A DNA stretch of 64,000 nucleotides from Candidatus Altiarchaeales archaeon ex4484_96. GTDB taxonomy: Archaea; Altiarchaeota; Altiarchaeia; IMC4; QMZM01. Below are positions 10,786 to 46,107 of this stretch, piece after piece. Positions within the stretch are counted from its first letter, which is position 1, and each line of letters opens with the position of its first letter. The notes beneath the pieces are model-generated. The model had not been told where the DNA came from. It saw nothing but the letters and a program-made list of their open reading frames with translations, and made no database searches. The DNA lies in NCBI GenBank assembly GCA_002254405.1, contig NJDH01000003.1, positions 5,080-69,079 on the forward strand, written 5' to 3'. A program made the position numbers and the translations under genes.

Positions 10786-10788
10786 TTC

Positions 10789-11052: not shown

Positions 11053-11540
11053 GTTTCGTCCTCAAATATCTCCACCAATCTGGTTCTCATCGTGCCATCT
11101 AATAGCTCCTGCGCCGATTTATCCGATAGTGAGTGGACAAAATACCTGTTTTTCTTTACGTCTATGGTTATTGTCCCGGGTGTGAGTGTTATTGAGTTGG
11201 CGAGTGTTGTTTTCCCTATATCCCCTTTAAGCTGCGTATCGAATTCTATAATCTTGGGGTTGATGGGCATGCTGGGATGTAAAACCCGATACGCTACATC
11301 CAGGTTGGCGAGTATTATGCTGTATCCCAGGTAAATCAGGTATTTGAGGGCTTGGATTATTTTTTTTAGTGAGGTGTTTGTTTTATCTTCTGCTATCAGT
11401 AAATCGCTGGAGTAGTACGCTACGAGCAGACTACCGATTACTCCGGCGCTGATATGCAGTAAGTCGATTCTTGCGGACAGCAGCATCCAGAATAACACCA
11501 TGATTGCGAATGTTAGAGTAAAGGGCTTTATCTTTACCAT
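11049..11540 (-). CDS. mrpE: Mrp antiporter subunit E
   Basis: 163 aa with N-terminal TM segments. It is the first gene of the cluster, as in Mbh/Mrp (E-F-G-B-C-D order). Confidence 0.6.
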   Translation of the reverse strand: MVKIKPFTLTFAIMVLFWMLLSARIDLLHISAGVIGSLLVAYYSSDLLIAEDKTNTSLKKIIQALKYLIYLGYSIILANLDVAYRVLHPSMPINPKIIEFDTQLKGDIGKTTLANSITLTPGTITIDVKKNRYFVHSLSDKSAQELLDGTMRTRLVEIFEDET

Positions 11541-11627
11541 TTTTATTACTTCATTTACTATAATTGAGTTATAATTATCTGTAACTATAATTAATTATAA
11601 TGATAAATTAAATCAATAATATCTACG
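11541..11627. promoter_or_regulatory. AT-rich divergent intergenic region between the mrp cluster (minus) and atpI (plus). It is expected to carry the two promoters
   Basis: ttttattacttcatttactataattgagttataattatctgtaactataattaattataatgataaatt contains several TATA-like hexamers on both strands. Confidence 0.4.
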
Positions 11628-13646
11628 ATGTTCAAACCAGTGTCCATGAAGAAGGTTCGATTGGGGGTCTTAGACCGCTACGTTGAGGATGTCATGCGTG
11701 AACTCAGCAAAATGGGGGTCGTTCATATATTGGATATAAAGGACACCAAAATAGAGGTGGAGCAGGAACCCATGGATTCTGAGCAATGTACTGAGCTTTT
11801 ACGCAGGATAAACCATGTTATTGATTTACTGGGCATAACAGAAGAACACGACGCCTTTGGCGAGCTAAAAATCATTGAAGACAAGATTGCGGTAACCGAG
11901 AAATCCTCAACCGAGCAGTTATCGGGGGTGGCAGATAAATTCCAAAAAATCGAAGCCAAAACTCTTGCTGCAAACGATAAGCTCATTGAGTTATCTGCTA
12001 GAGAAGAGGAAATCAAAGGCGATATCGAGCGGCTTAGGGTGCTTAAGGCTGTTGACTTAAAAGCTGATTGGGTTGGGGCTTCAGGGATGCTGGTTACATT
12101 ATCCGGTCTTCTTGCACCAGAGTACCGATCTAAACTGGTTGCGAAACTGGATGAAGCCTTCGGGAAGGAGTATATCTTTCATGCCTCAAAGCAGAATATC
12201 GGCGGTCTCATACCCTCTGTCGTTTCAACTCTGATAGAAAACACAGATAAACTGGATGAGCTAATATCTGGCATTGATTTCAGGCCCGTTGCATTAAAAG
12301 GTTACGTGGGCGACCCCGTTAGAGCCATAGATGAGTTAAACACAGAGCTTGATGACATAAAAAAGGAGAAGGAGAAACTAACGGCAGGGCTTAGAAGTCG
12401 AAGCGAACAATACAGGATTGATTTGCTGGTTATGCGAGAGCTTGTTTTAATAGAGAAAAACATAGATGACGCCGAGAACCTGCTGGGTAAAACAAAAAGG
12501 GTTTATGTTTTGCAGGGCTGGGTTCCTGAAAGAAGCATACAGGATATTTTGCGCAGGATAAGAAAGATAACAGATGAGAATGTGTTCATCAGGGTCGAGA
12601 ACCCAAAGGAAGATGATAGGGTTCCAACCTTTTTGGATAATCCCAGCGTTTTCAAGCCTTTTGAGGTTATTACCTCCACATTTGGCTTACCTTCATATAA
12701 TGAGCTGGATCCCACCCCTGTTCTGGCTTTGACTTTCCCCTTCATATATGGTTTGATGTTCGGGGATGTAGGACATGGTTTCATGGTGGGGTTGATTGGC
12801 TTGATTCTTTTTTCCATGGCCAGTAAGGGCACTAGGGATCTGGGTTTTGTTTTAACCGTTTCTGGTTTGTCTGCGATGGTTTTCGGCGTATTGTATGGTG
12901 ATTTTTTCGGTTTACATGGTATAATTCATCCGGTCTGGACATCACCTCTTGAGGCTCCTACGACCCTGTTGTTGTTTATTTTTGGCGTGGGGATGGTTCA
13001 CATCGGTCTTGGTTTGTTTATGGATGTGGTGAAGCTTCTGGCTAAGGGGGAATTACTTCATGCGTTGTTTGAGCCGATAACCAAGCTCTGGCTTTACTAT
13101 GGTACGGTTGCTTTTGGTTTAATGAGTTTCCAGTCTTATGGGATGGACGTAATAAGCTGGGTGGGGAATATGGCTTTCCTGCCTCTTATTGTGCTGCCTC
13201 TTGTGGTTCTTGCATTCTCGGGGGTTCTGGTTCATCTGCCCAGGATTGATGTGAGCAAAATCGGGGCTCAACTGGCTGAGGGGGGCTTTGAGGCGTTTGA
13301 CACGGTTTTGATTTTTCTTTCGAATACCTTATCCTATGGCCGTATGTTTGCCTTGTTGCTTGTTCATGCCGGGCTTTTTGTTGCCTTGTTCAGTGTTGTG
13401 GGGACGTTTACGGGCATAAATCATCATAATCTGGTTTTGGGTGAGATGGTTTCTGTTGAGGGTATTATATGGTTTGTTTTTATTTTTATCGGCACTTTTT
13501 TGATTATTGGATTGGAGGGTCTTATTGTTTTCCTGCACACTCTGAGGCTTCACTATTATGAGTGGTTCACGAAGTTTTTTGACGCGGAGGGAAATAAATA
13601 TCAGCCATTCACAATAAAAAGAATATATACTCTGATTGGACGATAA
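11628..13646 (+). CDS. atpI: A-type ATP synthase subunit I (a-subunit of the V/A-ATPase family)
   Basis: 672 aa with an N-terminal soluble coiled-coil region and C-terminal TM helices. The essential Arg motif LSYGRMFALLLVHAGL matches the subunit-a consensus LSYxRLxALxLAH. Confidence 0.85.
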   Translation: MFKPVSMKKVRLGVLDRYVEDVMRELSKMGVVHILDIKDTKIEVEQEPMDSEQCTELLRRINHVIDLLGITEEHDAFGELKIIEDKIAVTEKSSTEQLSGVADKFQKIEAKTLAANDKLIELSAREEEIKGDIERLRVLKAVDLKADWVGASGMLVTLSGLLAPEYRSKLVAKLDEAFGKEYIFHASKQNIGGLIPSVVSTLIENTDKLDELISGIDFRPVALKGYVGDPVRAIDELNTELDDIKKEKEKLTAGLRSRSEQYRIDLLVMRELVLIEKNIDDAENLLGKTKRVYVLQGWVPERSIQDILRRIRKITDENVFIRVENPKEDDRVPTFLDNPSVFKPFEVITSTFGLPSYNELDPTPVLALTFPFIYGLMFGDVGHGFMVGLIGLILFSMASKGTRDLGFVLTVSGLSAMVFGVLYGDFFGLHGIIHPVWTSPLEAPTTLLLFIFGVGMVHIGLGLFMDVVKLLAKGELLHALFEPITKLWLYYGTVAFGLMSFQSYGMDVISWVGNMAFLPLIVLPLVVLAFSGVLVHLPRIDVSKIGAQLAEGGFEAFDTVLIFLSNTLSYGRMFALLLVHAGLFVALFSVVGTFTGINHHNLVLGEMVSVEGIIWFVFIFIGTFLIIGLEGLIVFLHTLRLHYYEWFTKFFDAEGNKYQPFTIKRIYTLIGR

Positions 13647-13660
13647 TACACAATTTTATT

Positions 13661-13717
13661 CGATTAATATTTTAAAAAAACATAATATTTTAAACAAATA
13701 GAGGTGAACGACAAAAA
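13661..13717 (+). promoter_or_regulatory. Candidate promoter/5'UTR of atpK, with a TATA-like element atattttaaa and a Shine-Dalgarno gaggtga 10 nt upstream of the ATG
   Basis: Seen in sequence at 13685-13707. Confidence 0.35.
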
Positions 13718-14023
13718 ATGAAGCTAGGAAAGATATTGATGGCATGCACTACACTGCTTTTGCTAGCGGGGATAGTCGCAGCGCAAGAAAACACGGAATC
13801 AGCAACACCATCAGGTAAAGAGATGGCAGCCGCATTGGCTATCGGTGTTGCAGCTCTCGGAGCCGGATACGGTGTTGGCGTAGCAGGCTCGGCTTCGGTT
13901 GGAGCCATAGCAGAGAAACCCGAGGTTTTCGGCAGAGCACTTGTGTTTGTGGCCTTCGCAGAGACAATAGCCATATACGGACTATTGGTTGCTTTAATGA
14001 TACTCTTCGGAATAGGTGCCTGA
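13718..14023 (+). CDS. atpK: A-type ATP synthase proteolipid subunit K (c-subunit)
   Basis: GxGxGxG-rich hairpin with the ion-binding Glu in AFAETIAIYGL. 101 aa, including an extra N-terminal hydrophobic segment. Confidence 0.85.
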   Translation: MKLGKILMACTTLLLLAGIVAAQENTESATPSGKEMAAALAIGVAALGAGYGVGVAGSASVGAIAEKPEVFGRALVFVAFAETIAIYGLLVALMILFGIGA

Positions 14024-14048
14024 TGCATCCTTTCAACAAAATAAAGAT

Positions 14049-14087
14049 GCGCAGATAGTATTTATTCTGCGCAGTCTTGTTTTTATT
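14049..14087 (+). terminator. 7-bp stem-loop (GCGCAGA..TCTGCGC, 10-nt loop) followed by a TTTTTATT tract, lying between atpK and atpC. It could be an intra-operon terminator/attenuator
   Basis: gcgcagatagtatttattctgcgc at 14049-14072, T-tract at 14080-14087. Confidence 0.4.
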
Positions 14088-14106
14088 ACCTAGATTTGGT
14101 GAGAAC

Positions 14107-15132
14107 ATGAGTATCGCGCAAATAAAAAATTATGCTTACGCCAACGCCCGCATAAGGGCCATGAAAAGCAATCTGTTATCCAAAGCCGATTTAGAGAGGG
14201 CTTGCAGGCTTGAGGATTTAAGCAGCTTCATGGGTTTTCTGGAAGAGCACAGTTATCCGGAGCTCTTTGACATAAAAAAACACACCCAGAAGGTGGTTGA
14301 ACATGCGTTACACACCCATCTTGTGAATAACTCAAACAAAATTTATTCACTCACCCATGATAGAGCCAAGCCTTTTATGGGTGCTAGAACAAACAGAAAC
14401 GAAATCAACGCCATAAAGGGTATAATAAACTCTAAACCCCAGAACAGGGAACCATTTAAGGTTCTTTTATCCAGGAAGATGGCCAACGGTTTCAGCCGGG
14501 TAAAAGATGCTAATGACATGGAGAAGCTGGTGACCGGTTTCAAGGGGACAAAATACGAGAAAATACTGGAGTCTGTATCAGAGGATTATGCGAAAACAAA
14601 CAATATTTTCCTCTACAGCATTATGCTGGATAAACACCACTTTAGCCTACTCTATGAAACCATGAATCTGCTTGATTCATCCGATAAAAGCAAAGCACGA
14701 GATATCATCGGATTAGAGGTCGATACCTTAAACATCTCAACTGTTTTCAGAACCCTTGGCATGGAGAACTCAGCTGATTATATCATACCCCACTATCATA
14801 AACTACGCAGGCAGTTGATTGATGAGTGTTTGAGGTGCAAGGATGTGGCTGATGTTGTCTCCAAAATGTCTGATACTCAATACGGTGAATTATTGGGTAA
14901 TGGCTTATCTGTTTACGAGAAAACAGGCAGTGTTTTTATCTTTGAGCGGGTGCTGAAAGAAAATCTTTTGCTTGCTAACAGGATGCTTCTTGTAAAAAAC
15001 ATATTCAATATCGGCGTTTTGCTTGCGTTTCTTAACATAAAAGAGGCTGAGATACTGAATCTGCGCAGAATAGCTGTTGGACTGAACCATAAGCTGCCGG
15101 CAGAGGAAATCAAGGATCTTGTTGTTTACTGA
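14107..15132 (+). CDS. atpC: A-type ATP synthase subunit C (V-ATPase d-subunit family). The start was moved from the listed 14077 to the Met following the T-tract
   Basis: N-terminus MSIAQIKNYAYANARIRAMKSNLL matches the YAYxNARIRAMKSxLL start of the AtpC/V0-d family. About 340 aa. Confidence 0.7.
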   Translation: MSIAQIKNYAYANARIRAMKSNLLSKADLERACRLEDLSSFMGFLEEHSYPELFDIKKHTQKVVEHALHTHLVNNSNKIYSLTHDRAKPFMGARTNRNEINAIKGIINSKPQNREPFKVLLSRKMANGFSRVKDANDMEKLVTGFKGTKYEKILESVSEDYAKTNNIFLYSIMLDKHHFSLLYETMNLLDSSDKSKARDIIGLEVDTLNISTVFRTLGMENSADYIIPHYHKLRRQLIDECLRCKDVADVVSKMSDTQYGELLGNGLSVYEKTGSVFIFERVLKENLLLANRMLLVKNIFNIGVLLAFLNIKEAEILNLRRIAVGLNHKLPAEEIKDLVVY

Positions 15133-15334
15133 ATCTTTTTGTTGTCCTATACAGGAAGTATATCAACCCAAGGGTTGCTCCCATAAACATGCCCAGGGCT
15201 TTAGCGATTTCGTTAAATAATCCCCCCACCAGATACCCCACCGCTATCAGGATGATTACTGCGCCAGCCAGCTCCACCGCATAAGGCAGGGAGCTGATTA
15301 TTATTGTTTTGTCGAATTTGATTTTTTTCACCAT
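15110..15334 (-). CDS. Small 2-TM membrane protein, function unknown
   Basis: 74-aa ORF with two hydrophobic helices, tightly placed upstream of carS on the same strand. Confidence 0.3.
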   Translation of the reverse strand: MVKKIKFDKTIIISSLPYAVELAGAVIILIAVGYLVGGLFNEIAKALGMFMGATLGLIYFLYRTTKRFSKQQDP

Positions 15335-15906
15335 GGTTTTTTCTTCATCTTAAGAGCCCATGCCATGATATTACCAAGAACATGTATTGCGGGGGTTATG
15401 AATATCAGAACATAAAAGCGCGGATAGTCTATTTCACCTAAGAGAAACCATGAGGCCAGCACAGCACCTAAAACGAAATCAAGCTGGTCGAGCAGGGGAG
15501 CCGGGTGCCCTCTTTTTAGACTGGATTGTCTTTTAATAAAGCTTGCGACCATATCCCCTAAAAGCGCCCCCAAGCTGAGAATAAAAGCCAGTTCCACGCT
15601 CATATGAGGTAGTGTTAGCTGGGGTTCATGAAGTATTGACCTCAGAAACAACATGGCTTTTAGGTGAGTATTTTGTTGTATGAATCCCGCTATCGTACCG
15701 CCTGCTACCCCAAAAAACAAACCCCTCCATGTTTTTCCATCCCCCAGTATCCTATGACCCAATAACTTTCTGTTCCCGTCTATTGGTTTCCCCATCCACT
15801 CTAGTTCCTTTATTTTTGAGACATTAACAGGAAGCGAATTAGCAAAATAAGCCGGCAGAATAAACCATGAGGCATCTATTATCCTGATTCCCGTATCCAG
15901 AAACAT
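15328..15906 (-). CDS. carS: CDP-archaeol synthase (CDP-2,3-bis-O-geranylgeranyl-sn-glycerol synthase)
   Basis: PIDGNRKLLGHRILGDGKTWRG and KRGHPAPLLDQLDF motifs typical of CarS/DUF46. 192 aa, polytopic. Confidence 0.75.
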   Translation of the reverse strand: MFLDTGIRIIDASWFILPAYFANSLPVNVSKIKELEWMGKPIDGNRKLLGHRILGDGKTWRGLFFGVAGGTIAGFIQQNTHLKAMLFLRSILHEPQLTLPHMSVELAFILSLGALLGDMVASFIKRQSSLKRGHPAPLLDQLDFVLGAVLASWFLLGEIDYPRFYVLIFITPAIHVLGNIMAWALKMKKKPW

Positions 15907-15955
15907 TCTCTTTATTGTAATTATGGAATAAAGAGGTTATAACATAAAACATAAA

Positions 15956-17257
15956 CTAGGGAGTTAGTCTGTGCCTGTCCCTCGGGAAGTAAACCACCTC
16001 CCTGATGGATAAATCCAGAAGCTGCATCAGCAGTCTATCGATCCCTAAACCGAACCCACCGTGCGGCGGCATCCCGTACCTGAAGCATTTGAGATAGTAT
16101 TCGAAGTTGTCTGGGTTAAGGTTATGGTAATTGATTCTTGCCTTTAAAAGAACAGGGTCGTGTATTCTCTGGCTCCCGGATGATATCTCCACACCCTTAT
16201 ATCCTAAATCAAAGGACCGGGATATTTTTTTGTCATCGGGCATGGTATAAAATGGTTTGCTTTCGAGGGGGTATTTGGTTATGAAATAAATCTCTGTATT
16301 GTGTTTTTCTTGCATAACTTCCCCGAGCAGTTTTTCCCCTTCAGTGTCTATGTCCTCGCCCCAGGTTATTTTTTTATTTTTTTCGGCTAGTAAATCAAGA
16401 GCTGAATCGTATGTGATTCTTTTTATCGGCAGGGTGGGGTTATTTATTTTTTTATCCAGTATACTAAGCTCTTTCTCACAGCCTGATGCCTCCTTAATCA
16501 TCTCGCAGACAAGTTTCTCCAGCACCCTCATCACGTCTTCCTCGTCTTCTATGAATGCCATCTCCAGGTCCACCGCAGACACCTCGTTTAGATGCCTTCT
16601 GGTGTCATGTTCTTCTGCACGGAAATATGTGGTTGTCTCATAGACTTTGTCTAATCCTGTTGCCATCATCATCTGCTTGTATAGCTGGGGGCTTTGAGCC
16701 AGAAACGCTTCTCTGTCGAAATATGATATCGGGAATAAATCGGTTCCTCCCTCAGATGCTGAGGCGATAATCTTGGGGGAACACATTTCAATAAAACCTT
16801 TTTCTCCAAGATATTCTCTTGCCCTGTTGATTAGTATGCTTCTTATCTTGAAAATAGAGGCTATTTTGGGTTTCCTAAGGTCCATGAACCTGTTGTTTAG
16901 ACGGGTGTCGGTATCGGCTGGCACCTTTCCTGTGACATCAAGCGGCAGGGGGGATTCAGAGGAATTGATTAAAACAATCTTTTCTGGGTTAATCTCCAGC
17001 CCGTTGGGTGCTTTCTGGTTTAATTTAACCCTGCCTTTGACCTGGATAACGGATTCCTTGCTGATTGAGTCAATCACTTCAAGCATTTCATCATCTGTTG
17101 CGCCTTTCTTGGCTGTGACCTGTATGAAGCCTTCTCGGTCTCTTAAAACAAGGAACTTGACTTTCCCCAGATTGCGTTTCTCGTGAACCCACCCACATAA
17201 TAATACTATCTCATCCTCAAGCTTTGATGTTATGTTAGCAGAGTAATGGGTTCTCAT
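15956..17257 (-). CDS. aspS: Aspartyl-tRNA synthetase, archaeal/eukaryotic type
   Basis: 433 aa with an N-terminal OB anticodon-binding domain. The class II motifs include FRAEEHDTRRHLNE and GGFGLGIDRLLM. Confidence 0.9.
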   Translation of the reverse strand: MRTHYSANITSKLEDEIVLLCGWVHEKRNLGKVKFLVLRDREGFIQVTAKKGATDDEMLEVIDSISKESVIQVKGRVKLNQKAPNGLEINPEKIVLINSSESPLPLDVTGKVPADTDTRLNNRFMDLRKPKIASIFKIRSILINRAREYLGEKGFIEMCSPKIIASASEGGTDLFPISYFDREAFLAQSPQLYKQMMMATGLDKVYETTTYFRAEEHDTRRHLNEVSAVDLEMAFIEDEEDVMRVLEKLVCEMIKEASGCEKELSILDKKINNPTLPIKRITYDSALDLLAEKNKKITWGEDIDTEGEKLLGEVMQEKHNTEIYFITKYPLESKPFYTMPDDKKISRSFDLGYKGVEISSGSQRIHDPVLLKARINYHNLNPDNFEYYLKCFRYGMPPHGGFGLGIDRLLMQLLDLSIREVVYFPRDRHRLTP

Positions 17258-17260
17258 CTT

Positions 17261-17749
17261 TCAGGCAAAGACTATTTCCATATTTTCTTCTGTGAGGGAT
17301 TTAATCAGTTTCTCTATTTCGTTGATGTCCATCCTGAGTTTTTTCCTGTCTTTTTTCTCTATCTTCACTCTCTTGATGATGGATCCGTCTGTCTTGTATA
17401 CTTTGTTGACGTTTTTAACCCTTGCTGGGGCGACGAAATCATATAGTATCTCCTCTAGATTGCCTGTTCCGATAACCCTGATTTGTTTGCCTAATGTGTT
17501 GGATAGGTGTCTGATGTTGTCCCCGCCTTTGCCTATGATTTTACCTATGTTTTTTTTGTCTGTTAGGATTATGATAAAGTTTTGGGTGTCGATTGCTCTC
17601 TCAAACCCGATTTCTCCCTCTCCCAGCTCAAAAAGAAGCTTTGATATTTCAACGTCTAATTCGCTTATTTTACCTTCCTGAAGCTTTGACTCGCATTTGT
17701 TGCACAGGACTTTTGTTTTCGCGCATATATCGCATATTGGTAAACTCAT
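17261..17749 (-). CDS. Zn-ribbon plus KH-domain RNA-binding protein
   Basis: N-terminal CDICAKTKVLCNKCE, and a KH GxxG motif in IGKIIGKGGDNIRHL. Confidence 0.5.
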   Translation of the reverse strand: MSLPICDICAKTKVLCNKCESKLQEGKISELDVEISKLLFELGEGEIGFERAIDTQNFIIILTDKKNIGKIIGKGGDNIRHLSNTLGKQIRVIGTGNLEEILYDFVAPARVKNVNKVYKTDGSIIKRVKIEKKDRKKLRMDINEIEKLIKSLTEENMEIVFA

Positions 17750-17801
17750 TTTTTATTTTACAATAAAATAATGCATTAACCTGCTGGGTGGTTTTTTTTT
17801 T

Positions 17802-17987
17802 TTATTCGGTTATTTTGATGCATCCAACAGGGCAGGTTGTCTCACAGGCACGGCATAAAACACAGGTGTCTACGTTTCCCGTAACCTTTGATTTCTCCTC
17901 AACGAGTTCATATAGTGAAACTGGGCAAACATTAACGCATGCTCCACAACCTATACATCGCTCCCGATCGATTTCTATTCTCACCAT
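17802..17987 (-). CDS. 2x[4Fe-4S] ferredoxin
   Basis: CIGCGACVNVCP and CVLCRACETTCP cluster motifs in a 61-aa protein. Confidence 0.75.
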   Translation of the reverse strand: MVRIEIDRERCIGCGACVNVCPVSLYELVEEKSKVTGNVDTCVLCRACETTCPVGCIKITE

Positions 17988-18041
17988 TTTGAACGTGTGG
18001 GTGAAGTATTTTATTTATTTATATTTCATGTTTAAAAAACT

Positions 18042-18605
18042 TCAGCTTATCTTCATCTCAATGTATGGTACAAAAAGATAGTACTTGCTTTCGTTTTTTA
18101 GTTCGTCGATTATTTTTTCCGCTATTATCTTGGTTGGGTCGGGCATGTTTTTAACCCTCTCCTGGAGGTTTTTGAAGTCCTCAAACGGTTTAATCTCTCT
18201 TTCAGTTAATATGTCTTGTCTGTGTCTTTTACCTATTCTGGGTAGTGTCTCAAGCTTATGGAGTCTGGTGCTTATGATACCCGCCGTGTTGAAGAATTCA
18301 ATGTATGCTTTTTCCTTGTCTTTTATTATTTCCATGAGTATTATTTTGAGTTCTGTTTTGGCTGTTGGGGTAAGCCACTCGTATTTGATTCGTCTCTCTA
18401 TGTGGTCTACTTTGTCTCTGGTTCCCTCTCCTATGTAAAGCCTGCTCCCTACTTCGAGTTTCATGTCTTTTCTGGGTGCGAGCTCCAGCAACGAAAAATG
18501 TTTTTCTCCCACCACCTGGGCTATGGGTTTCCTTTTGTGGGGTGGGACCTCTGATTTGCCCATGGGCAGAAAGTCGAGTACGCGAACATATTCGTCCTTT
18601 TTCAT
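18042..18605 (-). CDS. COG1491/DUF655-family predicted nucleic-acid-binding protein (OB fold plus HhH)
   Basis: N-terminus DEYVRVLDFLPMGK is typical of this archaeal family. 187 aa. Confidence 0.6.
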   Translation of the reverse strand: MKKDEYVRVLDFLPMGKSEVPPHKRKPIAQVVGEKHFSLLELAPRKDMKLEVGSRLYIGEGTRDKVDHIERRIKYEWLTPTAKTELKIILMEIIKDKEKAYIEFFNTAGIISTRLHKLETLPRIGKRHRQDILTEREIKPFEDFKNLQERVKNMPDPTKIIAEKIIDELKNESKYYLFVPYIEMKIS

Positions 18606-38026: not shown

Positions 38027-39232
38027 ATGAAGCCTTGTTGGAATAAGCTTGTGGCGTCGTTGATTGTGCTGGCTTTATTTTTTAATATGGTGCAGCTTGT
38101 TTCCTCTGATGCTCACAGCCATCCTAAATTAGACCCTACCTCCTTGTTAGGCAGTTTAGAGAAAACCAAGACCGGTTCTGTTGTTGCAGAGCTTTTCACT
38201 AAATCAAATGTTATGCTGGCGCAGCGCGCGTTTTATATTTTTGTTGTTGGATATATCATCAACACGATTGCTGAAGACATTGAAAATAATTTTTCCAAGC
38301 ATATCCTATTAAATCCAGATTTGAAAAACCCGGCGGCATTAAACCTGCTTCGTTACTTTATCGGGTTGCTTTATCCCGTGTATATTCTTGCGATTGTTGT
38401 CACAGGGTTTTATATTATTTTTATCCCTGGCTCTCCTGTCGGCAGGTTCAGGGCGAAGTCGTTGCTGGGTAAGCTTATCATTAGTATGGTTTTGGTTTCA
38501 ATATCCCCTGAGCTGATGGGGTGGCTGCTTTTGTTGACTGAGGAATCCACCCGGGAGATAATAGGGGATGATGAAAACATCAGGGCTTATGTTAGAATAG
38601 CTGCTAATGAGTTTTCCTCTATGATAAAGACCATCCGCAACCTGATTATTTTAGGTAATGCACCGAATCTTTTATGGGCTGGGGCAGGAACTCTAAGCAG
38701 CGTTTTAGGTATATTGAAAGGAAGCGCCCATGGTTTTCTGGGCAACGCAGGGCATTTTATGCACGCTATTGAGATTTTTGAGATAGAGACTGTGTGGACT
38801 GTCCCCCTTCTTATGCTGATGGTTCTTGTGATAATCGGGGTCTATGGTCTGCTTGCCATAAGGTATTTTATGGTATTGCTTTGGGCTATGCTGCTGCCTT
38901 TCACTATTTTTCTCTCATCTTTCGAGTTCACGCGCGGTTTCGGGAAGACCATGCTTGAGCAGACCCTCTTATGGAGCAGCCTGCAGGTTTTTTATGGCAT
39001 CACTATAGTGGTTATTGCCGTGGGTATCACGATTGTTCCATCAAGCATGTATGAGTCCTATGGTATAGGCATCTATAAGGGTGATGTCATAGGATTAGGC
39101 TCGGTTATGGAGTCATTGGATATAGCTGGAGAGCCTTTTTTTGTCAGCATATTCACATGGTCCAGCATGTTTATGTTGTTTTTGGGACCTATTTTGATGT
39201 TCACTTTTTTCCAGAAACTACTTCCACCGTAA
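38027..39232 (+). CDS. Polytopic membrane protein, paralog 1 of 5. It has a signal peptide, a ~90-aa ectodomain, a hairpin module (TGFYIIFIPGSPVGRFRAKSLLGKLIISMVLVSISP) and a C-terminal multi-TM domain
   Basis: Shared motifs with the paralogs: PxYxxAxxxTGFYxxF..SP.GR.KAKS.L.KL..S.VL.S.SP, and later RYF.VLLWA.L.PF..F.SSF.FTR..G..MLEQT.LWSS.Q. Confidence 0.65.
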   Translation: MKPCWNKLVASLIVLALFFNMVQLVSSDAHSHPKLDPTSLLGSLEKTKTGSVVAELFTKSNVMLAQRAFYIFVVGYIINTIAEDIENNFSKHILLNPDLKNPAALNLLRYFIGLLYPVYILAIVVTGFYIIFIPGSPVGRFRAKSLLGKLIISMVLVSISPELMGWLLLLTEESTREIIGDDENIRAYVRIAANEFSSMIKTIRNLIILGNAPNLLWAGAGTLSSVLGILKGSAHGFLGNAGHFMHAIEIFEIETVWTVPLLMLMVLVIIGVYGLLAIRYFMVLLWAMLLPFTIFLSSFEFTRGFGKTMLEQTLLWSSLQVFYGITIVVIAVGITIVPSSMYESYGIGIYKGDVIGLGSVMESLDIAGEPFFVSIFTWSSMFMLFLGPILMFTFFQKLLPP

Positions 39233-39233
39233 T

Positions 39234-40181
39234 ATGAGAAACAAAAGTTTTATTGTTGTTGCCATGGTACTGGCTTTGATGTTTGTTCCCTTAGTGCATC
39301 ATGTAGAGGCATCACATGATTCTCCCGGGCAGGCGTTCGCTAAAAATGTTCCAGACACCTTAACCTTTCTCCTAAAAAGAGTTTTATACTATACTGTGGC
39401 GTTTAATTACGCCAGCCGCGGTCTTGATGTTCTATCATCCAGCCTGGAGGAATTTATCCTCATGAATCCCTCACCCCAGCACCCGGTTGTACTGGATATT
39501 ATCCGGTTTTTTGTCTCGCTTCTGCAACCCTTTTATGTGCTTGCTATTTCTATAACAGGGTTTTATCTTATCTTTGTCTCATCATCTCCTGCAGGAAGAA
39601 ACAAGGCTAAAAGCACATTAATTAAGCTGGTTTTCTCTCTCGTCATCATATCCCTGACTCCTCAGGTGATGACCATAGCATTATATACTACCGAAAATAT
39701 CACCAGCTCTATATTAGGCCAGGCTGACATATCCTACTATACCTATGCGTTAAATGAGGCGATGAACACATTACAGTGGATTCATCTGTGGGCTTCATTG
39801 ATTAACATTGAGATGGGTTATTATTCTTTTCTGCCGCCTTTTTTCATAGTATGGGGTACTTATGTGATGCTTACCTTAAGGTTTATCGCTGTTTTATTGT
39901 GGATTGTTATGTTTCCGCTTGCTGTTTTCCTTTATTCATTTACTTTCACGAAAAACATCGGGAGAAACATGCTTGAGCAAACAATTTTATGGAGCAGCAT
40001 GCAAATATTCAATGCTTTATTGGTGGCTGTGGCAGCAATAGGCATGATATCCAAGGAACCTGGGTTTATGCACATACAAGCCCTTATTTCCGGAATAGAT
40101 ATTATTTTGATTGCGGGTGTGTTTAGTTTGGTTGTTGCTCCCGCTTTGATGTTGATTTGGTTCAGGAATTTTTTGCCTTAA
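39234..40181 (+). CDS. Polytopic membrane protein, paralog 2 of 5 (hairpin SSSPAGRNKAKSTLIKLVFSLVIISLTP)
   Basis: Same motif set as paralog 1. The start is 2 nt after the previous stop. Confidence 0.65.
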   Translation: MRNKSFIVVAMVLALMFVPLVHHVEASHDSPGQAFAKNVPDTLTFLLKRVLYYTVAFNYASRGLDVLSSSLEEFILMNPSPQHPVVLDIIRFFVSLLQPFYVLAISITGFYLIFVSSSPAGRNKAKSTLIKLVFSLVIISLTPQVMTIALYTTENITSSILGQADISYYTYALNEAMNTLQWIHLWASLINIEMGYYSFLPPFFIVWGTYVMLTLRFIAVLLWIVMFPLAVFLYSFTFTKNIGRNMLEQTILWSSMQIFNALLVAVAAIGMISKEPGFMHIQALISGIDIILIAGVFSLVVAPALMLIWFRNFLP

Positions 40182-40185
40182 AAAA

Positions 40186-41367
40186 ATGAAAAAAAACAAA
40201 ATAAGGGTTCGAAAGATTGCAATGGTTTTGCTCATCATTATTGTTTTATCGTTGAATGTTAACTCCCAGTTTTTAACGGATTTATGGAGCAACACAAAAA
40301 AACACTTCAAGGGTGAAGGATTACTTAACCCTAAATCGTTTTTCGGTGAGAGCATCGGGTACTTCATCAGGATGATTCTGGTGGTGAAGGTGATATACGG
40401 GGGATTTATCCCAAAATATGCATTGTCCTTCCCGCATAATTTTTATGAGGCTATAATGTCTAATCCATCCCCTTATGACCCTGGCATATTTAATCTGCTG
40501 GTGTTCATGATTAAAATACTTCAACCGGTTTATATCATGCTTATTCTGGCTGCCGGGTTTTATGTGCTTTTCATGCAGTCGTCTCTTTCATCACGCTCTA
40601 AGGCGAAGAATCTGCTTATCAGACTTTTGATTTCGATGCTTGTTTTATCGCTTTCCATCCCGATAATAAATCTTTTGCTGGGTTTATCAGAGGGTGTTAC
40701 TGAATCGGTTTTTGGCCTTATTAGCAGGCAGGAGATAAAGCATACATTGGGCGGTGCAGTCCATAATCTTTTTTGGGTTTATGCTTTGACAGCAGTTCCT
40801 CACACAGACATAGGACTACCTTATTTAACCCTTCTTTTTGCGATGGCGTTTCTCCCATATATAGTTCTTGGTTTGCGTTATATACTAATAACCATGTTCA
40901 TGGTCTTGTTCCCTCTTGGAGTGTTTTTCTACACCCTCCCCTGGCTTAAGGGGATAGGCAAAAAGATACTAGAACAGCTTATTGTGTGGATCTTTTTGCA
41001 GATTTTTATTGCATTGATTATTGTGGTGTTCGTCGGTATCGGCTTGACCATAGAAGATCATGTAGTCTATAACGCCAAGATATCCTTATCTAATCTTAGG
41101 GGCATGTATGATGTTACCGGAATGCTTGCTTTAACCCCAACAGGTATTGATGTCGGTAAATATTTTGGTTTCTGGGGTGTGCTGCTTGGTGGAGTAATCG
41201 GCGCGGGTGTGGGGGTTGCCCCGATAGAGTTTCTCCTGTGCCACTTTTATGAGGCCCTGCCGGCAACCATAAACATCGTGTATTTCGTACTGGGGGCTAC
41301 AATATATGCAATGCTCGCTATTTTCCCTCTCATATGGTCCCATCACCTCCATGATTTCCTACCATGA
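40186..41367 (+). CDS. Polytopic membrane protein, paralog 3 of 5 (hairpin QSSLSSRSKAKNLLIRLLISMLVLSLSIP), with a Gly-rich extra C-terminal TM domain
   Basis: Same motif set. Ends with GVLLGGVIGAGVGVAPIEF. Confidence 0.65.
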   Translation: MKKNKIRVRKIAMVLLIIIVLSLNVNSQFLTDLWSNTKKHFKGEGLLNPKSFFGESIGYFIRMILVVKVIYGGFIPKYALSFPHNFYEAIMSNPSPYDPGIFNLLVFMIKILQPVYIMLILAAGFYVLFMQSSLSSRSKAKNLLIRLLISMLVLSLSIPIINLLLGLSEGVTESVFGLISRQEIKHTLGGAVHNLFWVYALTAVPHTDIGLPYLTLLFAMAFLPYIVLGLRYILITMFMVLFPLGVFFYTLPWLKGIGKKILEQLIVWIFLQIFIALIIVVFVGIGLTIEDHVVYNAKISLSNLRGMYDVTGMLALTPTGIDVGKYFGFWGVLLGGVIGAGVGVAPIEFLLCHFYEALPATINIVYFVLGATIYAMLAIFPLIWSHHLHDFLP

Positions 41368-42440
41368 AAAACAAAACAAAAACCCTGGTATTGGCTTTGA
41401 TTTTGGTTTATTTAGCGGGGGCGCTCTCGTTGGATGTGTTAGCCACTAAAATGAAGGGCGCTTATTCCAAGGCACCCTGGGGTGAGGGATTCATTAATGT
41501 CTTTACCTCGGAAGCGGCTAAGTTTTCCAGGAAAGGTCTTATAATCTGGTCTGGTAGTCTGGTTCATGATTTTTATCTCAGCATTTACCCTAACATGCCC
41601 ACATTAATAACAGCTAATCCCCCTATGTGGAGTATCAAGCATTTCATGGGTTTCTTCATCAATCTCATAGAGCCGTTTTATATTGTGGCTATTATGTTAA
41701 CGGGGTTTTATATTATTTTTGTCTCACAGTCTCCTGTAAACCGGGCTAAGGCAAAAAAATGGTTTGGGAAGCTTATAATAGGGTTGGTTCTCATCTCCAT
41801 ATCACCCCTCCTCGTTGAAGTACTGTATTTTATCTCCAGCAACCTCTCAAAGCAGATTATGAATCTCGCTGACGTGGAGCTGGCCTTGGGTTCGTTTAAG
41901 GCAGCCTCGCAGGGTTTATGGGATATGTTCAAATATCTGACAATGATACACAGATACGGTGGCGTGGAGATATTCCTCATTGATACCGTGGTAATGATGG
42001 CATTGTATCTTATCATGTTTATGAGATATATTATGGCTGGTTTATTGGCTGTGCTTTTGCCTGCAGCATTGTTTTTTTATTCATGGGATTTAACCAGAAA
42101 CGTGGGGAAGATGATGTTTGAGCAATTGATTATATGGATTTTCATGCAGATGGGTTGGGCTGTTGGGTTGGTTATTGTCTCTGTTGCAGTGGTTACGTTA
42201 CCGTCTGTTGCTCCTAGTATGCCGATAGAGTTCTTGTATATCACATCGCTTCTTTTTATGATGGCTGTTCCGTTCATGATACTTGGTGTTATGAACTGGA
42301 TGGGTTTGTCGATTTTCATGTTCGAGGTTGTGCAGGCCGCTCCCTTAAGCAGCGGTGCTGTGTTGTTTGGTGAAACCACGATAGAGAGGAAACCCGTGGT
42401 TGAGGAGGAGGTGATTGTTAAGCCACCGGAGGATTACTGA
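41364..42440 (+). CDS. Polytopic membrane protein, paralog 4 of 5 (hairpin SQSPVNRAKAKKWFGKLIIGLVLISISP)
   Basis: Same motif set. 4-nt overlap with the upstream gene. Confidence 0.65.
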   Translation: MKNKTKTLVLALILVYLAGALSLDVLATKMKGAYSKAPWGEGFINVFTSEAAKFSRKGLIIWSGSLVHDFYLSIYPNMPTLITANPPMWSIKHFMGFFINLIEPFYIVAIMLTGFYIIFVSQSPVNRAKAKKWFGKLIIGLVLISISPLLVEVLYFISSNLSKQIMNLADVELALGSFKAASQGLWDMFKYLTMIHRYGGVEIFLIDTVVMMALYLIMFMRYIMAGLLAVLLPAALFFYSWDLTRNVGKMMFEQLIIWIFMQMGWAVGLVIVSVAVVTLPSVAPSMPIEFLYITSLLFMMAVPFMILGVMNWMGLSIFMFEVVQAAPLSSGAVLFGETTIERKPVVEEEVIVKPPEDY

Positions 42441-42445
42441 ATAAA

Positions 42446-43942
42446 ATGAATCAATACCCTAAAAGTATCTGGTTTGTTGTTTTCCTTATTATTCTAGCCT
42501 TAACCCTAAACGCCAGCTCATTAAACCTGGGTGAATCATCTCCTTCAAGCGAGTCGGCTGCGGGGGTGGAACAAAGCAGCTGTCGCATTCTGCCGGGCAC
42601 CCCGGAATACGATGAATACATCGAGCCATGCGAGATAGACAGCGATTGCGTGAGGTTTATGAAAGAATACAGCAACCTGATGCAAAAAGACACCTGCGAC
42701 GCATTAAGGGAGACGATAATCGAAGCCTGCGATATAGCCGAAGCCGAGGAAAAGGAGGTATTGATTGCCGTGCAGCTGGGATTAGACCCCCCGGGCGGAA
42801 CAGAGCAAACAGAAAGTCCGCTTGTTGAAGGCAGGGGAGTGAGGTTTTACTCTGACACACCCCTGGCGATGCCCCATGAAAGGCTTTCTGATATCGCAAC
42901 CAACTATTTTGATTTCACGATGAACGAGGGCACCCACATCTATGCTTCGGTCATTGGGGAGAGGGAGGGGCTGAATCCGACAGAATGCTCTACCACGGTT
43001 GAAACATGGAATGAAGGTATTCATTCCTCTGATCATACGGTGAACGAGATGGTGGACAGCGCACTCGCTATTATTCTAAGCGCTGAAGGGAAACATCATA
43101 GTGGTCTAATCAAGTGGATGGAAAGTGTAACAGGTTTTATTCATTTACCCCTCACCGAGGCTGTTAAGTCAGAGTTCGCTAAGTCTTTCGGGGGCAGGTT
43201 TCTTGTCGGATGGCTTGGGGTTAAAATAGGAATACTCGACAAGCTTGAGGTAATGTGCAATGACATAGACTACTTCATTTTGCTTAAACCTAACCTGACC
43301 GAACCGGTTGTAGTGAACACCCTGGATTTTTTCATCAACCTGCTTGAGCCATTTTATCTGCTGGCCATCGGCGCAACAATATTTTATCTACTATCCACGT
43401 CATCATCCCCGCTTGGTCGGGCGCGGGCTAAATCCACGCTTCTTAGGATGATAATATCGGTGGGTTTCATCATCCTCACCATACCAATATTCCAACTCCT
43501 ATTGGATTTAACTCACATAATATCAGCCTATACAATGGATTTGGTTGACATCAATATCACCAAAACCTTTTTATGCACTGAATGCATCAACGCCCTCAAC
43601 TACGAGTATCTTGTTATCATGCTGATAGCCTTCTTCACGGGATTGTTTATCGCTTTATTCCAGATAATCTTTTATTTGGGTGCGATGATTATACTGGTTT
43701 TAAGGTATTTTATGGTGATAATGTGGGCGATTTTCTTCCCCTTCACGATTTTTTTCAACTCGTTTCATCTAACCCGGCGTCTGGGTCATGAGATGCTTTT
43801 TCAGACCGGCTGGTGGATTGCGATGCAGTTTATTGAGGCGCTGGTTTTCCTGGTGGATGGCTATGATGATTGTATCGTTTTCGGCTCTGGAGGTGCCCTG
43901 GCTTTCAGGCACAGCCGATATGGCAGAGGAAGCCGAGTTTGA
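42446..43942 (+). CDS. Polytopic membrane protein, paralog 5 of 5, with a ~270-aa Cys-containing N-terminal ectodomain (hairpin TSSSPLGRARAKSTLLRMIISVGFIILTIP)
   Basis: Signal peptide. The ectodomain has CRILPGTPEYDEYIEPCEIDSDC. The motif set is the same as the paralogs (RYFMVIMWAIFFPFTIFFNSFHLTRRLGHEMLFQTGWW). Confidence 0.65.
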   Translation: MNQYPKSIWFVVFLIILALTLNASSLNLGESSPSSESAAGVEQSSCRILPGTPEYDEYIEPCEIDSDCVRFMKEYSNLMQKDTCDALRETIIEACDIAEAEEKEVLIAVQLGLDPPGGTEQTESPLVEGRGVRFYSDTPLAMPHERLSDIATNYFDFTMNEGTHIYASVIGEREGLNPTECSTTVETWNEGIHSSDHTVNEMVDSALAIILSAEGKHHSGLIKWMESVTGFIHLPLTEAVKSEFAKSFGGRFLVGWLGVKIGILDKLEVMCNDIDYFILLKPNLTEPVVVNTLDFFINLLEPFYLLAIGATIFYLLSTSSSPLGRARAKSTLLRMIISVGFIILTIPIFQLLLDLTHIISAYTMDLVDINITKTFLCTECINALNYEYLVIMLIAFFTGLFIALFQIIFYLGAMIILVLRYFMVIMWAIFFPFTIFFNSFHLTRRLGHEMLFQTGWWIAMQFIEALVFLVDGYDDCIVFGSGGALAFRHSRYGRGSRV

Positions 43943-44061
43943 ATCATACAAGAAGGAGGAAATCACGCCACCGGATTCGGTTGGCCCCCCCAAGGGGCCT
44001 TTGTGGTGATAATACTATTTTACCTGTTTAAACCAAATAATTAATTCAATGGGGAAATAAG

Positions 44062-44586
44062 ATGAGATTGGATAAATCCGATTTAAGGGCGTTGGGGTAT
44101 AAGGGTATTGCGGCTGGGTTCATTATTGCAGCGGTTTTGGCTTTCATCTATCAGCTTCTGACTGGAATGCCTTTTATTGTTGGTTTATTGGCGATGTTGT
44201 TGGCGGTTTTCGGGAGTTATCTGGTTTTCATGTCCTTTGAGAAAGAGGTGGTTCCCCCGAAAATGGATGAAGGCGAGTCGATATTACTGGAGAGCATAGA
44301 CCAGGGTTATGTGTTGTTTCCCTCCAGAAGAGGCCGTCTGCTGGGTCGGCGCTCACATAAGTATATGGGCCTTTATCTCACCAACAAGAGAATAATCGGC
44401 AAGGAGATTGATGTGGTCTTGGATATTCCTCTTGAATCCATCAAGTCTGTGGTTTTGGAGAGTAAGCTTTTTAGGGATTATCTGAGAATAAATTATCTTG
44501 TGAACAATGTGGAAAAGGATGTTTTGGTTGTTCCAGGGGATAGCGCTTTATGGAATCAGAAACTAAGAGAGCTTGGAGTGGGCTGA
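44062..44586 (+). CDS. 2-TM membrane protein with a C-terminal PH-like (bacterial PH/GRAM-type) domain
   Basis: Two N-terminal TM helices, then YVLFPSRRGRLLGRRSHKYMGLYLTNKRIIG reminiscent of bPH_2 domains. The call is weak. Confidence 0.4.
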   Translation: MRLDKSDLRALGYKGIAAGFIIAAVLAFIYQLLTGMPFIVGLLAMLLAVFGSYLVFMSFEKEVVPPKMDEGESILLESIDQGYVLFPSRRGRLLGRRSHKYMGLYLTNKRIIGKEIDVVLDIPLESIKSVVLESKLFRDYLRINYLVNNVEKDVLVVPGDSALWNQKLRELGVG

Positions 44587-45338
44587 AGAGGCTTATTTTT
44601 TTGTTGGTTTTGTTTACCCTGTTCCCCCCCTTCCAAGCACATGCTCAGTGTACTGGATCACCCCAGCCGGGTGCTTCATGCCACGGGTACATCCTCAGCA
44701 GCGCAGATATAAGCAACCCAACGGCTCAATGCAGTGATATGTCGCCTAAGCTTGTTGAGCTGCTTAACTGCATGGAGGGCTATCTACCTGAGAAGGCGAA
44801 GGTTATAAGCTCGGTCTCTGATTCACAGGGCATGGATCGGTGCATTCCAAGTGAACACAGCAGACCACCTTGTGCTCATGTCATTTATTCATGCCACTAT
44901 GGGGGGAGGGATTGCATTGGCCAATCCTATGCGGTGGATTTTAAAAACAGCGAATGCTATGCTGAGATAAGGCAGGCTTTGGCTTACTGCGGCGGAGGCA
45001 GGATTAAAACATACTCAACACACATCCACGTAAGTGTGGGGTGTGAAAATGGATGCAACTGTGACTGCGGTTTGACTAAAGTAAACCCTGTCACACCAGA
45101 ATTTAATGCTGTGGCGAAGGTGGGGAAAACAGCAACCAGCATTGAAGAGAAAAACGTTATTGTTAAAGTGGGGGATATGGTCTATTTTGATGCCAGTGAT
45201 TCCGTTGGCGTGGGCAGTTTCAGTTGGGATTATGCTGACGGGAACACAGCAACGGGAGCATCCCCCTCACACAGTTTTTCCTCTGAGGGAACCTATACTG
45301 TGGCCTTGACTTTCACCGGAAACCTCAACCTCGGTTAA
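44550..45338 (+). CDS. Secreted Cys-rich protein with one PKD repeat. It is probably the 5' segment of a longer gene interrupted by a frameshift
   Basis: Signal LIFLLVLFTLFPPFQAHA. 14 Cys. PKD motif SFSWDYADGNTATG. The stop is at 45336-45338, while frame +1 stays open from 45310 through 46107. Confidence 0.55.
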   Translation: MESETKRAWSGLKRLIFLLVLFTLFPPFQAHAQCTGSPQPGASCHGYILSSADISNPTAQCSDMSPKLVELLNCMEGYLPEKAKVISSVSDSQGMDRCIPSEHSRPPCAHVIYSCHYGGRDCIGQSYAVDFKNSECYAEIRQALAYCGGGRIKTYSTHIHVSVGCENGCNCDCGLTKVNPVTPEFNAVAKVGKTATSIEEKNVIVKVGDMVYFDASDSVGVGSFSWDYADGNTATGASPSHSFSSEGTYTVALTFTGNLNLG

Positions 45339-45512
45339 TCAAAAAACAATCACCATAGGCGTTGGGGACACAGCTTTCTTTGACGCAAGCCAGTCTATCG
45401 GAACCGGAAGTTTCAGTTGGGATTATGCTGACGGGAACACAGCAACGGGAGCATCCCCCTCACACAGTTTTTCCTCTGAGGGAACCTATACTGTGGCCTT
45501 GACTTTCACCGG
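45216..45512 (+). repeat. Two perfect 104-bp direct repeats (45216-45319 and 45409-45512) inside the PKD-coding regions, in different reading frames
   Basis: agtttcagttgggattatgctgacgggaacacagcaacgggagcatccccctcacacagtttttcctctgagggaacctatactgtggccttgactttcaccgg is present twice. Confidence 0.85.
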
Positions 45513-46107
45513 GTTAACCGCTCAGGCGGCGGTTAGAAGCAGCTGGGAATCAGAACAGGTTCAGGAGGTAGAGTGCTGTGAAATATGCATAGAGATATGG
45601 GGTGAGATGTGCGGCGGATACGCGAATTGCTCGAAAGACTGTGAATCATGCTGCGGGGACTGGTGCAAGGATTTGGATGACGAACCGGTTAAAAAACAGT
45701 GCGAGGCCGTGTGCGAAGGCAGATGCAAAAGCTATTTTGCTGTAAGTGAAATACTTGGTTTGATTTCCACGGTATCCATTATCCTTGCGGCAATAATCTT
45801 TGCACTCCATGCAATAGCATTATTGGTTTCTTTCGGACCCTATGAGCGAAGCGAAGCGAAAAGATCAATTAAGTATGTGATTATTGTCTTGGTCCTGTTT
45901 GCTCTAATATTTCATATAGTCAACATTTTGTATGCACCTTTTAGGGTTCCTGGGGGGGAAACCACCAACCCAACATGTCTAGATTGCTCTAATATACAAA
46001 CATGCAGTGATTATAACATGTATCTGGGTTACCAGGATTGCATATTAAATGTATGTGATGTTCACGATACCTGTTATGTGGATAAAGACCAACAGTGTGC
46101 GAGCTGA
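45310..46107 (+). CDS. Continuation segment in frame +1 relative to the previous CDS. It has a second PKD repeat, a Cys-rich region (CCEICIEIWGEMCGGYANCSKDCESCCGDWC), a C-terminal hairpin module (FGPYERSEAKRSIKYVIIVLVLF) and a Cys-rich tail
   Basis: There is no ATG before the GTG at 45493. The frame is open from 45310. The PKD copy is identical over 104 nt to the copy in the upstream segment. Confidence 0.45.
   Translation, partial: LSPETSTSVNQKTITIGVGDTAFFDASQSIGTGSFSWDYADGNTATGASPSHSFSSEGTYTVALTFTGLTAQAAVRSSWESEQVQEVECCEICIEIWGEMCGGYANCSKDCESCCGDWCKDLDDEPVKKQCEAVCEGRCKSYFAVSEILGLISTVSIILAAIIFALHAIALLVSFGPYERSEAKRSIKYVIIVLVLFALIFHIVNILYAPFRVPGGETTNPTCLDCSNIQTCSDYNMYLGYQDCILNVCDVHDTCYVDKDQQCAS

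Follow-up and report, generated by a model that had tools for sequence, protein, structure and literature searches.

Five tandem VirB6-like genes in Altiarchaeota and their possible assembly into a heteropentameric platform

A tandem array of five paralogous membrane proteins

The window analysed here is a stretch of 64,000 nucleotides from Candidatus Altiarchaeales archaeon ex4484_96 (contig NJDH01000003.1, positions 5,080 to 69,079 of the forward strand), and our subject is a run of five adjacent genes for polytopic membrane proteins, paralogs 1 to 5, that follows the gene of a giant Cys-rich surface protein (Table 1). An earlier note, made from the sequence alone, had placed five tandem plus-strand open reading frames (ORFs) within positions 38027-43942, and all five were recovered at the same coordinates. 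Their paralogy, at 25-35% identity, was borne out by a MAFFT alignment, in which identity to paralog 1 was 29-35%, and by BLAST scores of 105-150 bits between paralogs. The gene junctions, previously given as -4 to +5 nt, measure +1 nt from the giant gene to paralog 1 and then +1, +4, -4, and +5 nt from paralog 1 through paralog 5. The 1-nt gap and conserved synteny also uphold the tight coupling to the 1598-aa gene that the note had proposed. All five proteins share the domain order described there, namely a hydrophobic signal-like start, a region of variable length (~60-270 aa), and multiple transmembrane helices. Likewise, the two conserved blocks were seen in all five proteins of the MAFFT alignment, block 1 reading LL.PFYILAI..TGFY.IF.SSSP.GR.KAKS and block 2 reading LRY..V.LW..LFP...F.YSF..TR..G..MLEQT..W...Q. 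The element that the note called a P-x-Y...TGFY hairpin is better named a VirB2-pilin-like N-terminal hairpin, which is typical of VirB6 and CedA. A family hidden Markov model (HMM), whose source alignment includes the five window paralogs themselves, matched each of them far beyond chance (E 1e-95 to 1e-110).

Table 1. Position and main properties of the genes of the module and of the type IV secretion-like cluster on contig L021. Positions refer to the window except in the last row.
Feature	Position	Strand	Description
Divergent PKD protein	30266..33163	-	965 aa; transglutaminase-like core, weak N-terminal pilin-like hairpin
Giant Cys-rich surface protein	33229..38025	+	1598 aa; first module gene; ends 1 nt before paralog 1
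Paralog 1	38027..39232	+	401 aa; VirB6-like; 43-aa insertion ahead of the transmembrane core
Paralog 2	39234..40181	+	315 aa; VirB6-like; minimal version; AlphaFold2 model built
Paralog 3	40186..41367	+	393 aa; VirB6-like; longer C-terminal transmembrane extension
Paralog 4	41364..42440	+	358 aa; VirB6-like; 4-nt overlap with paralog 3; acidic C-terminal tail; AlphaFold2 model built
Paralog 5	42446..44009	+	VirB6-like; window ORF to 43942 (498 aa); 563 aa when intact
174-aa protein	44062..44586	+	two N-terminal transmembrane helices and a ~115-aa soluble domain
Pilin-hairpin PKD protein	44550..46107	+	one gene, split here into 44550-45338 and 45493-46107; 592 aa when intact
T4SS-like cluster (L021)	9406-22342		gene order: pilin, 1650-aa VirB6-like, 154-aa, 590-aa VirB6-like, 168-aa, 360-aa PrgI/TraC-like, 761-aa putative VirB4-type ATPase, three pilins

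The individual members differ in their N-terminal parts and in their ends. The N-terminal ectodomain of paralog 5 reaches ~270 aa and contains Cys residues; it is large in one sub-lineage only. Paralog 1 shares 65-66% identity with its orthologs P0002 and P0003, and paralog 2 matches a protein of ex4484_96 at 100% identity. At the very end of paralogs 1 to 3 (39215-39229, 40164-40178, and 41353-41364), we observed a conserved F-x-x-(F/L)-L-P, an ending also found on most orthologs of several paralogs and in which the proline is nearly invariant in the alignment. This motif could be a sorting or interaction signal.

Paralog 5 appears truncated because the window assembly lacks 128 nt at position 43853/43854. 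These are present in L022 and L023, two other assemblies of the same population that are 99.8-100% identical to the window. With the 128 nt restored, paralog 5 measures 563 aa and regains its C-terminal transmembrane region; in the window, its true C-terminus lies out of frame, with the stop codon at 44007-44009. A second break affects the PKD gene downstream, where L022 has 83 and 138 nt more than the window at 45319-45513, within the PKD repeats, and where ORFs 44550-45338 and 45493-46107 form a single 592-aa gene in the sister assemblies. The DNA repeats that encode the PKD domains are near-identical and spaced at 193 nt, which is not a multiple of 3, and the gene break falls inside them. 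Both breaks were treated as assembly gaps or minor strain variants and not as gene decay. Paralog 5 as a pseudogene was ruled out since its sister assemblies are intact.

Fold and genomic context point to VirB6

The earlier note had suggested a likeness to VirB6/TrbL channel components from type IV secretion systems (T4SS), and two lines of evidence now speak for it: the top fold match of two paralogs and the company that family members keep elsewhere. AlphaFold2 models of paralog 2 (predicted local distance difference test, pLDDT, 86.8; predicted TM-score, pTM, 0.75; 24-sequence alignment) and paralog 4 (pLDDT 89.4, pTM 0.74; 58-sequence alignment) were all-helical. Modelled independently, both ranked TrwI, the VirB6 protein of plasmid R388, first among 48,164 chains, and DotA also ranked high. 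In Foldseek, TrwI chains filled all of the first five places (E 6.5e-3 to 2.9e-2, probability 0.99-1.00), the alignments running end to end over 279-305 columns. An end-to-end match to a permease family, MmpL/RND or other, which the note had named as one outcome that would speak against its guess, was found in neither Pfam nor NCBIfam.

At the sequence level, the window proteins did not reach the curated thresholds of TrbL (PF04610) and TrbL_3 (PF19590). Three distant family members gave sub-threshold matches to Pfam TrbL/VirB6 (E 3.9e-4, 4.1e-3, and 8.9e-3), with 16-21 bits for a TrbL cut-off of 25.9. TrbL_3 was also listed in precomputed tables for the L001 ortholog of paralog 3 (weakly), for L009_596, and for P0123. 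Because the window proteins miss the Pfam TrbL threshold, formal membership in VirB6 rests on fold and context and not on sequence.

Genomic context comes from L021, an Altiarchaeota-like contig on which two family members (E 2e-47 and 5.7e-32 to the family HMM) are clustered with a PrgI/TraC-like gene, four genes for T4SS_pilin proteins, and an ATPase of 761 aa. This ATPase scored above the Pfam thresholds for the TraG P-loop domain (95.7 bits), AAA_10 (63.1), and DUF87 (55.1), a combination that, judged by its domains, is that of a VirB4-type enzyme. Because the L021 members have as neighbours this putative ATPase of the VirB4 type, a VirB3-like gene, and four pilin genes, the family very probably represents the VirB6 component of Altiarchaeota T4SS-like systems. 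The 360-aa protein of the cluster might combine VirB3 with the N-terminal domain of VirB4, and VirB4 appears to be split into two genes. The L021 cluster is chromosomal and has eRF1, PheT, and TGT genes on its flanks. It is syntenic with L009, an Altiarchaeota contig at NCBI (corresponding stretches 9597-18599 and 25138 onward), and the eRF1 proteins of the two contigs are 71% identical. Co-encoding with a VirB4-type ATPase and pilins is therefore seen for the family on L021, whereas the locus with five members, hereafter the pentad locus, has pilin-hairpin proteins without such an ATPase. Either the pentad apparatus borrows an ATPase from elsewhere in the genome or it needs none.

The N-terminal hairpin resembles VirB2-type pilins

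Pfam T4SS_pilin (PF18895) matched the hairpin in 11 of 25 family members (best E 1e-5), all of these scores lying below threshold (best 23.4 bits versus 26.6). Conversely, the family HMM detected bona fide pilins in L009 and L021. It also matched the window poly-pilin described below (E 1.3e-20 over the whole protein, the best single stretch reaching only 1.9e-5), and the loop motifs are alike, with SSSPAGRNKAKS in paralog 2 and SDSPEDRIRARN in the poly-pilin. CedA and VirB6 are known to have a pilin-like N-terminus that is homologous to their cognate VirB2-type pilin (Beltran et al., 2023; PMC9905601). By sequence comparison, the same homology appears to hold for the N-termini of the five paralogs. 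We considered whether the five proteins could themselves be VirB2 pilins, for which we expected a small (~100-150 aa) two-helix protein passing the family threshold. This was rejected, as they measure 315-563 aa, have at least four further transmembrane helices, and stay below the PF18895 threshold.

Five copies, positional orthology, and purifying selection

We searched 1.84 billion representative proteins exhaustively with a profile and obtained 460 clusters at E<=1e-3, of which 112 reached E<=1e-30. Many of the matches were 600-2000 aa long with the family domain at the N-terminus, and all named matches were from Altiarchaeota. A scan of one genome per GTDB species with the paralog-2 ortholog alignment found seven loci, only in Altiarchaeota or in unclassified archaeal metagenome-assembled genomes. 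Exactly five tandem members were counted in seven genomes, namely the window, L001, L004, L005, L007, L015, and L010 (Ca. Altiarchaeum IMC4, or Ca. Altiarchaeales archaeon IMC4), and two more contigs end before their copies can be counted.

The five copies are not interchangeable. Among the window, L001, L004, L005, and L007, the best cross-genome BLAST match was always the protein at the same position. A phylogeny, as the earlier note had called for, was built by neighbour joining and resolved the copies of six genomes into five positional orthogroups (bootstraps 66, 52, 53, 94, and 96%). The duplication is therefore old, and the number and order of the genes have been kept.

The note had also called for dN/dS by domain, and the cores proved to be under purifying selection. 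Between L001 and L004, the hairpin had a dN/dS of 0.15, the mid-loop 0.09, the transmembrane core 0.33, and the C-terminus 0.19, whereas the pooled value for the N-terminal segment was 0.53. By paralog, the N-terminal segment gave 1.57 for paralog 1 (over only 68 codons), 0.75 for paralog 2, and 0.63 for paralog 4. This pattern implies that all five genes are maintained and that their outward-facing N-terminal part is less constrained. As to the diversifying selection that the note had considered, the faster evolution of the N-terminal segments (0.53 versus 0.09-0.33) lends it weak support, and the invariant copy number speaks against it.

Partner genes of the module

Comparison of the loci revealed a conserved order of giant protein, five VirB6-like proteins, 174-aa protein, and pilin-hairpin protein. 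The giant protein has 69 Cys residues, a signal-like N-terminal segment, and a single C-terminal transmembrane anchor followed by a short basic tail. Searches against Pfam, NCBIfam, and PDB sequences returned nothing beyond a weak Ig-like match, and its C-terminal part is beta-rich and Ig-like in appearance. It is kept upstream of the five genes in L001, L004, L005, L007, L012, and L015; wide conservation is limited to the anchor and the ~450 aa at the C-terminus. In L007 and L015, its last ~170 aa form a separate gene, and the counterpart in L010 measures only 523 aa. We also considered whether the giant protein might be analogous to VirB5 or homologous to the long C-terminal extensions that some other members of the family carry; both readings were rejected after BLAST showed no similarity to L009_1749.

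The 174-aa protein was found directly after paralog 5 in the pentad loci and nowhere else in the loci compared. It had no significant match in Pfam or NCBIfam. By eye, its soluble domain seems PH/GRAM-like (GLYLTNKRIIG ... IPLESIKSV). Assignments to VirB3 or VirB8 were dismissed for lack of a family match.

The downstream 592-aa protein is secreted and Cys-rich, with PKD domains and a VirB2/T4SS_pilin-like hairpin as its anchor; the gene at 44550..46107 matched PKD_4 (E 8e-12), T4SS_pilin (E 1.1e-4), and an NCBIfam pilin-like conjugal transfer protein (E 1e-5). At the equivalent place, other loci have the homologs L005_224, L007_442 (pilin hairpin and SLT), and L015_202. The other domains of this hairpin-anchored protein vary, with PKD in the window and an SLT lytic transglycosylase in L007. 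On the other side of the giant gene, the divergently transcribed 965-aa protein probably belongs to the module, as suggested by its conserved position; relatives at this position carry SLT or Amidase_3 domains. At L001 2738-4714, L004 794-4684, and L007 14823-16151, SLT or Amidase_3 domains are joined to PKD domains, the partner in L007 being a pilin-like hairpin instead. Archaea have no murein. Bacterial neighbours are possible targets of these peptidoglycan-hydrolase-type domains.

A proposed heteropentameric platform and its alternatives

Of the two explanations offered by the earlier note for the fivefold paralogy, the evidence favours a stoichiometric VirB6/TrbL-like hetero-oligomer. In R388, the base of the stalk is a VirB6 pentamer whose alpha1-alpha2 hairpin lies in the membrane; VirB6 alpha1 is the proposed site of VirB2 recruitment, and the five-fold symmetry fits a five-start pilus (PMC9259494). 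Because the R388 VirB6 is a homopentamer and the Altiarchaeota loci hold five fixed, position-specific, and coupled paralogs, we propose that the five proteins form one heteropentamer within a T4SS-derived surface apparatus, a reading whose chances we hold to be evenly balanced. The five genes would encode VirB6/CedA-type platform subunits of a cell-surface apparatus specific to Altiarchaeota. Each subunit would consist of a signal-like N-terminus, a variable outward segment, a pilin-like transmembrane hairpin whose cytoplasmic loop is basic (SSSP.GR.KAKS), and an additional helical transmembrane core bearing FP...F.YSF..TR..G..MLEQT. Translational coupling would supply the subunits in equal amounts for a 1:1:1:1:1 ring. 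The asymmetry of such a ring could offer unique docking sites for the co-translated giant protein with its single C-terminal anchor and for the pilin-hairpin protein encoded downstream. If a motor is required, a VirB4-type ATPase from another part of the genome would provide it. What we infer from these data are the ring itself, its docking partners, the reliance on an ATPase encoded at a distance, and what the apparatus carries or does (DNA exchange, adhesion, or cell-cell contact).

Several observations weigh against this proposal. A VirB4-type ATPase was found neither in the 64-kb window nor in the 10 kb around any pentad locus. The Foldseek TM-scores to TrwI were low (0.30-0.41), and spurious matches are common among all-helical membrane folds. 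The five window proteins had no match to Pfam TrbL at E<=1, and the family profile found nothing among PDB sequences. A profile-profile comparison by hhalign between the family (165 sequences) and TrwI-like proteins (61 sequences) gave a probability of 2.4% (P 0.019), over 186 collinear columns, and a probability of 0.15% when the single TrwI sequence was used. The five copies of L010 (6987-12572) grouped together in the neighbour-joining tree (64% bootstrap) and not with the positional groups, and their BLAST affinities were mixed; this clustering might reflect long-branch attraction, concerted evolution, or a separate rise to five copies. Finally, the T4SS-type loci L009, L020, and L021 have only two or three members of the family, and five is therefore no general requirement of the family. 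Apart from this, we noted that the fifth copy of L010 is missing from the gene calls of the source annotation.

The alternative that survives best, though we regard it as rather unlikely, keeps the VirB6 likeness and dispenses with a mixed ring: the paralogs would build separate homo-oligomeric platforms, or would be swapped for one another to serve different pilin-hairpin proteins, cargos, or conditions. Separate or alternating platforms have long been proposed for the five RvhB6 proteins of Rickettsia. The very unequal N-terminal ectodomains (~60 to 270 aa) would suit such a division of labour, as would the several pilin-hairpin proteins encoded in the window (122-4168, 30266-33163, and 44550-46107). 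Other Altiarchaeota loci manage with two or three members, and the clustering of the L010 copies is compatible with a lineage-specific expansion. However, subunits that are redundant or stand in for one another should vary in number, and exactly five were found in seven genomes, six of which retain every positional orthogroup, once each and in unchanged order. Purifying selection on all cores also argues against separate platforms, as do the junctions of -4 to +5 nt, which suggest equimolar co-translation.

A different use of the same heteropentamer, which we consider unlikely, is a self-contained exaptation of T4SS parts without a dedicated ATPase. The VirB6 ring would then act as a socket that holds the giant and the hairpin-anchored proteins against bacterial neighbours. 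The proteins displayed would carry PKD domains together with SLT, Amidase_3, or transglutaminase-like domains, and the device could serve contact-dependent attack on bacteria, feeding on them, or capture of their DNA. Its aim at bacteria would follow from the absence of murein in archaea.

Still less probable is a generator of diversity, in which tandem duplication and diversifying selection on exposed parts would provide antigenic or host-range variation as in Bartonella. The N-terminal segments are indeed the fastest-evolving (pooled dN/dS 0.53 between L001 and L004), and the large ectodomain of paralog 5 is confined to one sub-lineage. In Bartonella, however, copy number is variable and orthology is blurred by recombination (PMC2883598), whereas the copies studied here are fixed and fall into separable orthogroups, and a dN/dS above 1 was reached on a single short segment in one pairwise comparison.

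Least probable of all, in our judgement very much so, is a coincidental likeness to VirB6 of an Altiarchaeota-specific family of membrane anchors or transporters that has nothing to do with type IV secretion: non-significant sequence comparisons with VirB6, TM-scores of 0.30-0.41, and a locus without ATPase would agree with it, but the models of paralogs 2 and 4 both put TrwI first of 48,164 chains with DotA high, the top five Foldseek matches are all TrwI, a VirB3/VirB4 pair and pilins enclose the L021 members, the likeness of the hairpin to T4SS_pilin can be recognised, and no permease family was matched in Pfam or NCBIfam.

Comparison with known systems

VirB6 is, to our knowledge, the least understood core part of the T4SS, with a structure available only from R388 and a pentamer that is thought to load pilins. 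The R388 protein TrwI/VirB6 (PDB 7o3v and 8rt9; Pfam TrbL PF04610) is the closest in fold. It differs from the window proteins in being the homopentameric product of one gene, where we found five diverged genes without significant sequence similarity to it, and in lying within a complete virB operon with VirB4, VirB11, and VirD4, where the pentad locus has no ATPase. Unlike TrwI, the window proteins have signal-like N-termini and variable ectodomains.

The closest biology is that of the Ced and Ted DNA-import systems, which are archaeal, chromosomal, and domesticated T4SS derivatives, as proposed for the apparatus considered here. CedA and TedA are polytopic and VirB6-like with an N-terminus homologous to their own VirB2-like pilin (PMC9905601), the same relation as between the hairpin and T4SS_pilin in the present family. 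The likeness lies in their published description; Ced and Ted have a single CedA or TedA near a VirB4-like CedB or TedB. Their hosts are Sulfolobales, Desulfurococcales, and Thermoproteales instead of Altiarchaeota, and a giant Cys-rich partner has not been described for Ced or Ted.

In gene-family behaviour, the closest parallel is RvhB6a-e of Rickettsia, where an "extraordinary five copies" of VirB6 occur throughout the lineage, flanked by diverging and frequently very long regions (674-1154 aa) (PMC2653234). Altiarchaeota family members of 600-2000 aa with long extensions resemble these large RvhB6 proteins. Unlike the window paralogs, the RvhB6 proteins are bacterial, are recognisable by Pfam TrbL, and occur in genomes with a full rvh set, and the two expansions are evidently independent. 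No paper linking RvhB6 to a pentamer was found in the literature searched. Less similar is the Trw system of Bartonella, with tandem copies of trwL and of trwJ-trwI-trwH, which include the VirB6 homolog trwI (PMC2883598); several TrwI paralogs per Bartonella genome were also seen here. The Bartonella copies are recent and recombining, their number varies with the species, and diversification concerns mainly TrwL and TrwJ, whereas those of Altiarchaeota are ancient, fixed at five, and position-specific.

What is new here is a lineage-specific, fixed set of five VirB6 paralogs in a module that has no ATPase and is linked to a giant surface protein. One protein split into five fixed subunits amounts to a natural experiment, in which the positions of a ring become distinguishable and can be mutated and mapped singly, and in which the contacts between neighbours could be read from co-evolution. 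In the Altiarchaeota set, the five RvhB6 genes of Rickettsia, themselves unexplained, also gain a parallel of independent origin. Moreover, this set extends T4SS-derived machinery to the Altiarchaeota, whose members are abundant in the subsurface, fix carbon, and possess two membranes and unusual appendages on their surface (PMC4460559). We found no mention of type IV secretion components in Altiarchaeota, or of a link to VirB4, in the literature searched, a negative that is limited in that the papers containing both "Altiarchae" and "type IV secretion" have neither term in their title or abstract. As for the hami grappling hooks, the possibility that this locus encodes or anchors them was set aside for want of evidence: the hamus subunit is published as a soluble 97-kDa S-layer-like protein, and nothing ties hami to these genes.

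Other features of the window

The neighbours of the module in the window are archaeal housekeeping genes, including RFC, IleRS, ThyX, a split MetE, archease, RtcB, and subunits of an A-type ATPase and of Mrp. Near the start of the window, flanked by Mrp antiporter genes and with no ATPase close to them, lie two adjacent plus-strand poly-pilin genes (122-949 and 989-4168). A 1059-aa poly-pilin comprises eight tandem T4SS_pilin/TrbC hairpin units (Pfam E 3e-57) and also matches the NCBIfam pilin-like conjugal transfer protein (E 9e-32). The repeated units measure ~120-130 aa, with conserved Cys and the loop AG..W..SDSPE.R..AR. ORF 122-949 is the C-terminal portion of a 617-aa poly-pilin that is found in full in L018. 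Such a tandem fusion of conjugative-type pilins is unusual and may represent either a polyprotein precursor or a protein with 16 transmembrane helices.

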